From: Promethearchaeia archaeon
GTDB lineage: Archaea > Asgardarchaeota > Lokiarchaeia > Sigyniarchaeales > SOKP01
Direction of reading: 5' to 3'
DNA: 11,927 nt
Assembly: GCA_029856155.1 (NCBI GenBank)
Contig: JAHQWL010000008.1
Coordinates: forward strand, 1 to 11,927
Shown here in pieces: positions 7,000-9,806 of this stretch; within the stretch, counting starts at the first letter, position 1, and each line of letters opens with the position of its first letter. The position numbers and the translations under genes are program-made. A model generated the notes under the pieces. The model was not told the origin of the DNA, did not search any database, and was given only the letters and a program-made list of their open reading frames with translations.

Positions 7000-8049
7000 T
7001 TGAGAGTATTAATACTTAGTCATTTTAATATTATTAAGGGACCTATAGAAGTTTTGAAAATTCCAGAAGATTTTGTATTTAATGGCATTAAAACTATTCC
7101 TAAGCATCTAAATTTAGATCAAAATGATTTCTTTATTTATGACTATGAAACTTTTAAAACAGCTAATTTAAGATTTACAGTACCAAGTAAAATGGAGAGG
7201 GCGGATCGTGAAGAGCTTATGATTTCTGTGGTAATTATCAATGAACAGATATCTCCAAAAATATTCCAATCGATTTTACAAGAATTTAAAGAAGAACTTA
7301 AAAATATTAAGAATTTACATAAGGTGCTCTATACATCTTCTGAGGAGAATGCTGCTAAATTTCTTGAAATAAAAGAAATCTTATTTAAGTATTACCAAGC
7401 TATAAAGGATATAAAGGGGATACAATTGGATATTGACTTAAATTACAATTTTCCATGGGGGACGCATATGTGTTATTTTTACCAAAAAAAAGAAGATCTC
7501 ATGGACATACTAATACCCTATATCAAAAAAGGGTTAGAAGACAATCAGTTTTGTGTCTGGGTTACTTCAGAAGATCTTAATGAGAAAGAAGCTAAAAAGA
7601 AATTAAAATCTGAAATAAAAAATTTTAATGAATTCTTGAAAAAAGGACAAATAGAAATCTTTCCTTATTCAGAATGGTACCTTAAAGATGGAGAATTCAA
7701 CTTCCAAAGAGTTCTCGATGGATGGGTTCAAAAATATAATTATGCAATATCCCAAGGTTTTGATGGTATCAGAGTAACCGGCAATACTGCATGGATTGAA
7801 AAAAAGGATTGGGATGATTTTTCTGAGTATGAAGAAGAAATAAATAACGTTGTAGGAAACTATCGGATGATAGTCTTATGTACTTATTCTGCTGAAAAAT
7901 GTGGGATTAATGAGATTTTAGGAGTTATGAAAACCCATCAAGTAGCCACAATTAGAAAAGAAGGAAAATGGGAGATTCTCCAAAGATATGATCATTCACT
8001 TTTAAATTTGATTAAATTATTGCTTATTTTATTGGCAATTAATTATTAA
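7000..8049 (+). CDS. Fusion protein: N-terminal longin/uDENN (NPRL2-like) domain plus C-terminal MEDS (DcmR-like) sensory domain
   Basis: TTG start. aa 151 onward (FPWGTHMCYFY...IPYIKKGLEDNQFCVWVTS...GFDGIRVTGNTAW...YEEEIN...VLCTY) is a classic MEDS domain. The N-terminus ILSHFNIIKGPIEVLKIPEDF matches the 'F...GP' beta-hairpin of NPRL2/FLCN/C9orf72 longin domains. Confidence 0.85.
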   Translation: MRVLILSHFNIIKGPIEVLKIPEDFVFNGIKTIPKHLNLDQNDFFIYDYETFKTANLRFTVPSKMERADREELMISVVIINEQISPKIFQSILQEFKEELKNIKNLHKVLYTSSEENAAKFLEIKEILFKYYQAIKDIKGIQLDIDLNYNFPWGTHMCYFYQKKEDLMDILIPYIKKGLEDNQFCVWVTSEDLNEKEAKKKLKSEIKNFNEFLKKGQIEIFPYSEWYLKDGEFNFQRVLDGWVQKYNYAISQGFDGIRVTGNTAWIEKKDWDDFSEYEEEINNVVGNYRMIVLCTYSAEKCGINEILGVMKTHQVATIRKEGKWEILQRYDHSLLNLIKLLLILLAINY

Positions 8050-8248: not shown

Positions 8249-9037
8249 TCAAATAGGCACATAATTTTTTTGAAATAAACTAAAGAGAAAATATGCAATA
8301 CCAAAGTAATTGATTTCGATAGATTTTTCTTTTCTATCAATTGGATTTGGAAAAATGTTCAATGCAGAAATTGAAGACAACTTTTGAATAAAACCATTGA
8401 TAACACCCCTCGAAATTGTTTCATTCCTAACTTTCTCCATTGCTGTTTTCAAATCCTCTAATGATTTATATGTTTTTCTATGGTTTAATAAAGAATTTTC
8501 ATTAAAAGTTACATTAGATTTAAAAAATTGAGTATAATCTTCATAGTCATCAAAAAAGAGCCCTAAAAATTCAAACTGCTTATCGGTAAGTGGTTGAAAG
8601 GGGATTGAGGGTATTTCGACATTTGAGTAAATTCCTACCTCTTCATTTTTTTCATAGATAAAATTTCCGTGTATGATTTTTGAATTCGTAATAGAACTCG
8701 CTAAATAAAACCAAATATCCATATAACGCAAACCACCGGATATGTTTACAGTTATATTATCATAATTCAGCAATTTCTGTTGGTATATGAGATGAACTAA
8801 TTCTGCCACCGGCTTTGTTTGAATATGAAAATCAAATTTTATATCGGCCACTTCAATTTTTCGTTCCTTATAATACTTGAGAAGAGCTCCTAACACTTTT
8901 TTGGCCTCAAGTGTTCCTGGAAGCGGTTCACTTTCGGTAATAAATATGAGTTTATGAGATATTTCTTTATCGATTGATAGGATTAACTTATGGGACGTAT
9001 GCCCGACCAGTACAATTTGACAATAAGTTTCTTGCAT
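8249..9037 (-). CDS. Csa3-like / DUF6293-type CARF domain plus winged-HTH transcriptional regulator
   Basis: Rossmann-like start IVLVGHT, strand LIFIT, CARF motif VNISGGLR (compare Csa3 NLSGGMR), linker EIPSIP..LTDKQFEFL, and a C-terminal wHTH (SLEDLK...ISRGVINGFIQKL...KSIEINYFG). Confidence 0.85.
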   Translation of the reverse strand: MQETYCQIVLVGHTSHKLILSIDKEISHKLIFITESEPLPGTLEAKKVLGALLKYYKERKIEVADIKFDFHIQTKPVAELVHLIYQQKLLNYDNITVNISGGLRYMDIWFYLASSITNSKIIHGNFIYEKNEEVGIYSNVEIPSIPFQPLTDKQFEFLGLFFDDYEDYTQFFKSNVTFNENSLLNHRKTYKSLEDLKTAMEKVRNETISRGVINGFIQKLSSISALNIFPNPIDRKEKSIEINYFGIAYFLFSLFQKNYVPI

Positions 9038-9060
9038 AATAAGTGTTCCTATATTTATTA

Positions 9061-9188
9061 TATGTTCATGAAAATTAATAAATCAGTTGTTAATTTGTGA
9101 TCATACCTATTAACTTTTGAACATATATATTATCTAGGCTATATGATCACAAAAAAGTATTTAAACGAATATGGTTATTATGATCATG
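9061..9188. promoter_or_regulatory. Divergent promoter region with five TATG(A/T)TCA operator-like boxes, including a perfect 12-bp inverted repeat
   Basis: TATGTTCA 9061-9068 (+), TGATCATA 9098-9105 (-), TGAACATA 9118-9125 (-), TATGATCA 9142-9149 (+), TATGATCA 9179-9186 (+). TTTGTGATCATA 9094-9105 and TATGATCACAAA 9142-9153 are exact reverse complements. A BRE/TATA-like AAAAAAGTATTTAAA lies at 9151-9165. Confidence 0.65.
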
Positions 9189-9201
9189 TAATTTTTAAAC
9201 C

Positions 9202-9364
9202 AGGAAAGAGAAAAAAATAGGGCGAAAACCATGTCACTTCATTACCAAAAGGCAAATTTTGTCGTTAAGGGATCATTCCAAGTTTTTAGAATGACCCTTA
9301 TCTAAGGGTGGGGCAAAACGGGTGATCTTAAGCTATATGCTTAACCTATTTTCACTTTTTTCCT
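9202..9364 (+). ncRNA. Putative structured RNA (ncRNA or structured 5' leader), family unknown
   Basis: Nested complementary segments: 9202-9221/9345-9364, 9233-9239/9320-9326, 9257-9263/9312-9318 and 9266-9278/9289-9300, plus hairpin 9328-9344. It is visibly more G/C-rich than the other intergenic regions and begins ~35 nt after a TATA-like box. Confidence 0.5.
9231..9305 (+). CDS. Possible 24-aa small ORF (MSLHYQKANFVVKGSFQVFRMTLI) inside the structured element
   Basis: ATG 9231 to TAA 9303-9305, with a purine-rich upstream sequence. It is too short to prove coding. Confidence 0.25.
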   Translation: MSLHYQKANFVVKGSFQVFRMTLI

Positions 9365-9395
9365 ATTAATATCTAATAAATAGAGTGAAACAAAT

Positions 9396-9710
9396 ATGGG
9401 AAAATCATTTGGTATTGTTGCAATGATCTTTGGCTCAATTAGTATACCAATCTGCGCAGCAATGGTTGTTCTTAGTACTATAAGTAATTTCTATAGTTCA
9501 TTACTGGGAATACCTAATCTTTTAGCTCTATTATCTATGATAGGTTGGTTAATACCTGCCATTGCAATTATTTTCGGAATAATCGGTATCATTAAAGATG
9601 ATTCTAAAGGACTTGCAATGGCTGGGCTGATCCTTGGAGCCATCGCTTTAATTCTAGGTCTAATTTTACTTTTTGTGATTACAAATTCTTTTAGCGGATT
9701 AATTCCATGA
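9396..9710 (+). CDS. Small three-TM membrane protein, DUF4190-like
   Basis: GAGTGA SD-like site at 9383-9388 and three hydrophobic helices. AIIFGIIGI.K...KGLAMAGLILG is the typical DUF4190 pattern. Confidence 0.8.
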   Translation: MGKSFGIVAMIFGSISIPICAAMVVLSTISNFYSSLLGIPNLLALLSMIGWLIPAIAIIFGIIGIIKDDSKGLAMAGLILGAIALILGLILLFVITNSFSGLIP

Positions 9711-9729
9711 AATAACCAATATAAAATTC

Positions 9730-9737
9730 TTTTTTTT
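9730..9737 (+). terminator. Putative oligo-T terminator
   Basis: T8 run about 20 nt after the DUF4190-like stop codon. Confidence 0.35.
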
Positions 9738-9806
9738 GATATTTCTCAATATAATCAATAAAAGTAATTTGAAAAAGACTTAATACTAAAAATCTCATCT
9801 AAATAT

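Follow-up and report, generated by a model that had tools for sequence, protein, structure and literature searches.

The 163-nt element at positions 9202–9364 of the DNA analysed here (positions 1–11,927 of contig JAHQWL010000008.1 from a Promethearchaeia archaeon, forward strand; this whole 11,927-nt stretch is called the window) is probably a stand-alone gene for a circular non-coding RNA, made through a bulge-helix-bulge (BHB) splice signal. The parts of this reading that are directly observed are the motif, its conservation in relatives, a ring junction found in RNA and not in DNA, and the presence of the processing enzymes in the genome. The biogenesis of the 140-nt RNA ring is well supported by these observations.

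The two ends of the element, 9202–9221 and 9345–9364, pair with each other. An earlier sequence-only reading had described this pairing as a closing stem; the pairing is present but is better one base out of the register given there, which leaves a symmetric 3x3 internal loop. In the corrected register the ends form 17 base pairs with two staggered 3-nt bulges, and the supposed closing stem is a canonical helix-bulge-helix-bulge-helix signal, missed at the time, of the kind defined as the recognition signal of the tRNA-splicing endonuclease (PMC5829648, PMC7714728). The hBHBh' arrangement is complete: the central helix has exactly 4 bp, the two 3-nt bulges lie on opposite strands, the outer and inner helices comprise 8 and 5 bp, the cuts fall symmetrically inside the bulges and the excised piece is circular, as judged from the junction in RNA contigs. 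The cut rule was calibrated on the genome's own tRNA-Gly(GCC) intron, located at the canonical position 37/38, in which each strand runs in the order helix, 4-bp helix, 3-nt bulge, helix and is cut after the second bulge base. Applied to the BHB of the + strand, this rule predicts a ring of 140 nt spanning 9216–9355, the same as the RNA junction. The other motifs that can be drawn do not fit the 140-nt junction, the alternative + register giving 138 nt and the motif of the − strand 144 nt.

Loose BHB-like motifs are frequent in this AT-rich genome (~3,900 matches). Motifs of equal quality, with at least 17 bp, at most one G-U and at least five G-C pairs, number only three in 4.1 Mb, the element included. 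The other two, C4:45646–45806 (−) and C59:4452–4624 (+), enclose inserts of 143 and 165 nt and overlap predicted open reading frames (ORFs), and may be chance matches or coding-region introns. The genome carries two genes with the EndA-type catalytic domain tRNA_int_endo (103.5 and 72.6 bits) and one for RtcB (569.7 bits). The EndA subunit genes lie at C13:4082 and C52:107149, and the RtcB gene at C83:60896–62203. ARAGORN detects 23 tRNA genes in the 97%-complete genome, 11 of them with introns, one intron reaching 529 nt, which fits reports that tRNA genes of Asgard archaea are heavily interrupted.

The ring junction itself is recovered from environmental RNA. Contigs of two metatranscriptome runs from two studies (X19, X20) and of two DNA runs (X7, X18) were compared over 8900–9750. 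Both RNA runs contain one 170-nt contig that spans only 9216–9355, with 9355 joined to 9216 and no ambiguous letters. The length of 170 nt equals 140 + 30 (k−1), as is characteristic of a path that closes on itself in an assembly graph with k = 31, and the two contigs are different rotations of one circle, the shorter side of the joint measuring 39 nt in X19 and 53 nt in X20. This joint recurs in one more RNA contig, from a variant that like genome G004 has G at 9216. The 9355–9216 joint was not found in the DNA runs X7 and X18, one DNA contig spanning 9076–9570 in linear order. The expressed sequence belongs to an L042-type relative, ~93% identical to the window, and carries the compensatory change of A9275-U9292 to G-C. 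In X19 the summed contig depth is 21.8 for the ring versus 2 for the downstream gene. RNA contig depth is 0 over 9161–9189 and 9364–9392 and near zero over 9190–9215, the depth of 2.26 in the 9190–9218 bin stemming from ring positions 9216–9218; such contig data are uninformative on a precursor or a spliced leader.

Relatives of the element were collected by BLAST, covariance model and exact-pattern scans. The element occurs in 6 of the 54 genomes of the same Promethearchaeota genus, this genome included, and on four metagenome contigs, which together give seven distinct variants; no clear further case was found in the 151 class-level genomes sampled, and none in viral contigs. One pattern-search match, L034 in a bacterial metagenome-assembled genome, was rejected as a chance hit. 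Across the seven variants 96.9% of the BHB cells are paired, compared with at most 61% after sliding the partners against each other. When the window is compared with G004, G063, G030 and G018, identity amounts to 47–58% at the third positions of codons in the neighbouring regulator gene, 85–95% in the two BHB arms, 74–91% over 9222–9256 and 40–80%, near neutral, in the central hairpin. The arm positions that vary are 9202, 9203, 9205, 9216, 9355, 9356 and 9358. Changes at 9216 (G in G004 and in one RNA contig), 9355 and 9356 fall in bulge bases, T9358 becomes C in three variants and converts G-U into G-C, and A-to-G changes at 9202 and 9205 turn A-U into G-U, a pairing kept only on the + strand; a single A-C mismatch is seen in the arms, at 9203 of variant G063. 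Only in a + strand RNA can these G-U-compatible changes be tolerated. Overall, the aligned arms point to strong conservation with little true covariation. The coordinates of the signal and of the features around it are collected in Table 1.

Table 1. Features of the ring gene and its surroundings (window numbering unless a locus is named; pairing partners and variant counts under Remarks).
Feature	Position	Strand	Remarks
Divergent regulator gene, 262 aa, Csa3/HFX_2341-like CARF fold (predicted)	8249–9037	−	adjoins the element in 7/7 variants
Putative promoter resembling a B recognition element (BRE) and TATA box, AAAAAAG TATTTAAA	9152–9165	+	seen in sequence; conservation extends to every variant and to paralogous regulator loci
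Outer BHB helix, 5' strand (5' exon side)	9202–9209	+	pairs with 9357–9364, 8 bp including one G-U (G9208-U9358)
Central 4-bp helix, 5' strand GAAA	9210–9213	+	pairs with 9350–9353 (UUUC); invariant in seven variants
5' three-nucleotide bulge AAA	9214–9216	+	cut 9215/9216; junction of the RNA contigs starts at 9216
Excised, circularised RNA	9216–9355	+	140 nt in the window; 140–151 nt in relatives
Inner BHB helix, 5' strand AUAGG	9217–9221	+	closes the stem of the ring; pairs with 9345–9349; invariant in seven variants
24-codon ORF inside the ring	9231–9305	+	probably untranslated
Central hairpin P3	9266–9300	+	9266–9271/9295–9300 and 9273–9278/9289–9294
3' hairpin UUAAGC-UAUAU-GCUUAA	9328–9344	+	stacks on the inner helix
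Inner BHB helix, 3' strand CCUAU	9345–9349	+	pairs with 9217–9221
Central 4-bp helix, 3' strand UUUC	9350–9353	+	pairs with GAAA 9210–9213
3' three-nucleotide bulge ACU	9354–9356	+	cut 9355/9356; RNA junction ends at 9355
Outer BHB helix, 3' strand (3' exon side), T-rich	9357–9364	+	pairs with 9202–9209
104-aa membrane protein, weak DUF4190 match	9396–9710	+	variable neighbour, not a constant part of the unit
Type-2 stretches	L049:1200–1760; also L059, L062	− (L049)	upstream of regulator homologues

The + strand of the element folds at −42.9 kcal/mol (z = −2.9; 1 of 200 dinucleotide shuffles is as good) and the − strand reaches z = −3.95, so that both strands fold better than dinucleotide-shuffled controls, the comparison by which the sequence-only reading had proposed to check its structured RNA. 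All pairings listed in that reading are found in 9202–9364 where it had placed them, with differing fates among the relatives. The hairpin 9266–9278/9289–9300 is borne out and is kept at the same place by six of the seven variants with different sequences, G018 having a weaker alternative, and the hairpin 9328–9333/9339–9344 is likewise retained in relatives. The helices GTCACTT/GGGTGAT and TTTTGTC/GGCAAAA belong to the minimum-energy fold of the window, but their register is not retained by the more distant variants. GGC(G/A)AA, noted at 9221, 9251 and 9312, is a recurrence with no demonstrated meaning.

The ring measures 140, 140, 141, 140, 150, 147 and 151 nt in the seven variants, which share several features: a stem capped by a 7-nt loop, UUUCACA, formed by the ligation; the 3' hairpin stacked on this stem, where three variants have C-G in place of U-A and G063 forms an intact hairpin in a shifted register; a helix involving CCAUG, with a different register in each of the two clades; the central hairpin, whose pair A9275-U9292 is G-C in G004, L042 and the RNA contigs; and a G-rich block AGGGnGnGG. 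The ring would carry conserved single-stranded blocks as well as hairpins. An antisense target of the ring was sought in the genome, where the best BLAST match has E 0.03 and a 15-mer search allowing G-U pairs gives 943 scattered matches, which are noise; this is not a strong test.

The RNA belongs to no catalogued family among those compared. No Rfam family matches with E up to 10, whether the query is the whole window, 9180–9380 (201 nt) alone or any of five related loci, the ring being scanned in linear gene order, and ARAGORN places no tRNA at the element. The sequence-only reading had not recognised it as a tRNA, signal recognition particle (SRP) RNA, RNase P RNA or known riboswitch. The description as an unannotated, uncatalogued structured RNA of the + strand, lying downstream of a conserved BRE/TATA-like promoter, likewise holds. 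A permuted 5S rRNA was considered and rejected, the genome's 5S candidate lying elsewhere (C25:22635–22747) and the motifs visible there having no counterpart in the element. Two weak matches to the element in its own genome, C88:81869 and C55:45105, lie inside coding genes and were discarded. The element together with its promoter motif is single copy in the 4.1-Mb genome.

The sole constant neighbour of the element is the divergently transcribed regulator gene, which encodes 259–262 aa across the seven variants; the conservation beside orthologous regulators by which the sequence-only reading could be checked is thus observed. The Pfam scores of the regulator (Csa3_N, 23.1 bits; HFX_2341_N, 21.9 bits) lie under the cut-offs, as do those of NCBIfam. 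Its AlphaFold2 model (predicted local distance difference test score 86) finds Csa3 structures as the top Foldseek matches in the PDB (2wte, 6wxq and 6w11; E 2.5e-5), followed by other CARF proteins. On this model the protein is predicted to combine a CARF Rossmann-like N-terminal fold with a C-terminal helical, DNA-binding domain, which bears out the divergent CARF regulator named in the sequence-only reading. Palindromic boxes with a TGATCA core at ~9098, 9143 and 9181 flank the BRE/TATA motif and are conserved in relatives and at paralogous regulator loci; they are likely operators of the CARF regulator, which presumably controls the promoter of the element. A further TGATC lies inside the ring at 9323–9327. 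From the usual archaeal spacing between TATA box and start, transcription would begin near 9186–9190 (~9188), and the T-rich outer arm could double as an archaeal terminator tract.

No cas gene lies within the window, and Cas10 (Csm1 or Cmr2) was not found in the genome with TIGR02577 and TIGR02578, which does not exclude cyclic oligoadenylate production. This leaves a Csa3-like CARF regulator without an evident source of cyclic oligoadenylate. The regulator shares its fold with Csa3 of the Sulfolobales and with HFX_2341 of Haloferax mediterranei, which is a global repressor of haloarchaea (PMC11434293). The regulator described here is arranged head-to-head with a promoter flanked by palindromes and differs from these proteins in its apparent target, which is an RNA gene and not cas genes. 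The regulator family is multi-copy in Promethearchaeota genomes (G018, with C68:53122–53895 and fragments; G133:C82; G076; G065; G073). Paralogues of the regulator face unrelated protein genes from the same promoter layout, so that the family looks like a portable control cassette. Beside 12 further regulator homologues no convincing BHB motif was found.

A second group of loci shares sequence with the ring. Regulators with 73–79% identity (G133, G125) face a longer non-coding stretch, here called type-2, and the same stretch is present at locus C142 of G005, where the contig stops before any regulator gene. The type-2 stretch extends over several hundred nt, is conserved among three loci, lies behind the same promoter and contains no BHB; it is followed by a DUF488-N3a gene. 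The blocks ATAGGGCGAAA, AAAAG(G/A)CAATTTTC, CTAAAGGGTGGGGCA and TATTTTCATTTT are common to type-2 and the ring, and a type-2 hairpin shows a compensatory change (AGCGG/CCGCT versus AGCAG/CTGCT). Type-2 looks like a second, linear member of the RNA family of the ring, and since type-2 relatives are devoid of a BHB the RNA core is probably older than its circular form.

A pathway consistent with these observations would start with transcription from ~9188 at the BRE/TATA promoter, with the CARF regulator presumably acting through the operator-like TGATCA boxes. The transcript's two ends, purine-rich on the 5' side and U-rich on the 3' side, would then fold into the BHB that is visible in the sequence. 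The exact positions of the junction suggest that EndA would cut after the second base of each 3-nt bulge, 9215/9216 and 9355/9356, and the excised piece, the junction of which is seen in RNA, would be closed into the 140-nt ring by RtcB. The ring rather than its flanks would be the stable and functional product. Our best guess is that it serves as an RNA effector switched by the regulator, with a protein or another RNA as its binding partner and with a long life owed to its circularity.

Several observations weigh against a dedicated ring gene. The RNA evidence consists of assembled contigs of the ~93% identical L042-type relative and not of raw reads of this strain, and these contigs are silent on strand, transcript ends and true abundance. 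A cyclic contig alone is compatible with a tandem RNA artefact, although its exact coincidence with the BHB makes an artefact very unlikely. EndA cleavage and RtcB ligation of this RNA are predictions from the enzyme genes and the cut geometry. The central and inner BHB helices never vary, which is conservation without covariation; the central pairings drawn by RNAalifold differ between two alignments, and a helix 9295–9300/9304–9309 competes with the central hairpin. The existence of type-2 relatives without a BHB indicates that circularity is not essential to the common core. The small membrane-protein gene that begins within ~40 nt downstream in four of the seven variants also makes a leader-intron role possible.

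In that alternative the membrane-protein mRNA contains the element as a BHB intron within its 5' leader, and splicing matures or regulates the message while the ring is discarded, an arrangement with the same chemistry as the ring gene and with a precedent in HVO_1309 (PMC7714728). The ORF at 9396 lies on the same strand, starts 31 nt after 9364 and possesses its own Shine-Dalgarno-like GAGTGA, and the same ORF follows the element in the window, G005, L042 and G063. In the other three variants, however, the downstream gene is a truncated membrane-protein copy (G030), a different small gene (G004) or missing within ~300 nt (G018), and the ring interior is under selection, with invariant blocks and kept hairpins that a spacer intron does not need. 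The exon-exon joint (9215–9356) is missing among the RNA contigs too, which at their low depth is weak evidence. We consider a leader intron unlikely. The earlier suggestion of a novel non-coding RNA or regulatory leader thus stands in its first half, while the leader is disfavoured by a downstream gene that is not conserved.

Translation of the ring or of its linear precursor into a micropeptide from ATG 9231 (MSLHYQKA..., 24 aa), with GGGYGA as Shine-Dalgarno sequence, appears very improbable. The ATG and the next codons (x-x-H/Q/Y-Y-Q-K-A/T) are conserved, but the wobble bases of TAC CAA AAG are invariant versus ~50% at neutral sites, which indicates constraint at the nucleotide level, and the ORFs of the seven variants comprise 24, 24, 31, 24, 11, 33 and 25 aa with unrelated C-termini. 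GGGTGA stands 5 nt upstream of the ATG in G030 and G018, but the Shine-Dalgarno-like core drifts between variants (GGCGA, GGTGA, GGTCA) and G063 does not retain GGGYGA. Indels do not come in steps of three, ring lengths do not keep to multiples of three, and reading frames that run through the junction lack conservation. At the paralogous G005 locus the matching frame contains an ORF of 45 aa that includes a hydrophobic helix, but this ORF has no ATG in L059 and L062, and the conservation runs past every stop codon. A DNA-level element, be it a miniature inverted-repeat transposable element (MITE) bounded by terminal inverted repeats or a group of palindromes bound by proteins, whose RNA junction is an artefact of assembly or reverse transcription, is barely credible. 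The ends are indeed inverted repeats, TGATC is repeated inside the element and near it, and loose BHB-like matches are common, as noted above, but the G-U-compatible changes suit only an RNA of the + strand, and three contigs from two RNA studies share an identical junction at exactly the bonds predicted from the BHB, with none in the DNA runs. The MITE raised in the sequence-only reading is refuted, since the element has one copy in the genome, has no match in viral contigs and is found in synteny with the regulator in every case.

As a ring gene the locus can be compared with the few known substrates of the archaeal splicing endonuclease that are neither tRNA nor rRNA, namely cbf5 mRNA, the HVO_1309 leader and Thermoproteus SRP RNA (PMC7714728, PMC4731332). 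The intron in the 5' untranslated region of HVO_1309 of Haloferax volcanii is 46 nt long, has a canonical BHB and was recovered as a circular excised piece (Schwarz et al. 2020, PMC7714728). Both systems thus share a transcript that is neither tRNA nor rRNA, a canonical BHB, a circular excised piece and a location between a promoter and a protein gene. In contrast to the HVO_1309 intron, which has no reported conserved inner fold, the present ring extends to 140–151 nt and contains conserved blocks and hairpins. In the haloarchaeal case the downstream gene is the point, whereas in these Asgard archaea the downstream gene varies and the divergent regulator is constant. The permuted SRP RNA of Thermoproteus tenax (Plagens et al. 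2015, PMC4731332) similarly has a dedicated gene and yields a stable circular RNA through the tRNA-splicing endonuclease and a ligase. It is, however, a known universal RNA whose function is restored by circularisation, while the ring described here has no Rfam match when scanned in linear gene order. The motif geometry and cut positions are the same as in archaeal tRNA introns and circular pre-rRNA intermediates, which also depend on BHB, EndA and RtcB; unlike those cases there is no tRNA or rRNA frame here, the 5' exon would be ~28 nt long and the 3' flank is short and U-rich, without an evident role by itself. The classes named in a recent survey of circular RNAs in archaea are tRNA, rRNA, SRP and omega-RNA (PMC12558985), and neither a stand-alone ring gene under regulation nor this RNA family was found described in the literature.

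The locus is set apart by the combination of a promoter-driven dedicated ring gene, a junction in environmental RNA, a conserved interior that belongs to no family and a sensor-type regulator of its own. Its contributions are a ring junction seen in two independent RNA data sets, a calibrated cut rule, a comparison with neutral rates and the type-2 relatives. More generally, BHB scanning combined with metatranscriptome junctions can reveal RNA genes overlooked by family-based annotation, and this locus offers a testable system for the role of a prokaryotic circular RNA and for the control of its production. Asgard archaea are the archaeal lineage closest to eukaryotes, where circular RNAs derived from tRNA introns use the same enzymes. 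A tentative and rather doubtful proposal is that a ligand-sensing CARF factor without a CRISPR partner switches on a circular RNA effector, the two genes forming a 'sensor plus RNA ring' module. In such a module the long-lived ring might serve as decoy or sponge and sequester a protein or an RNA. It could also feed back on the CARF sensor, by analogy with the CARF domain of bacterial RtcR, for which sensing of RNA ends with 2',3'-cyclic phosphate has been reported, as EndA cleavage products bear such ends.

Two further observations concern the genome and the surroundings of the locus. The only 5S rRNA candidate in the genome, the one at C25:22635–22747, scores 28.4 bits against an Rfam cut-off of 38 despite typical 5S motifs. 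Beyond the regulator gene, positions 7000–8049 of the window encode a 349-aa protein in which an N-terminal domain without a Pfam match precedes a MEDS domain (Pfam E 2.6e-46).

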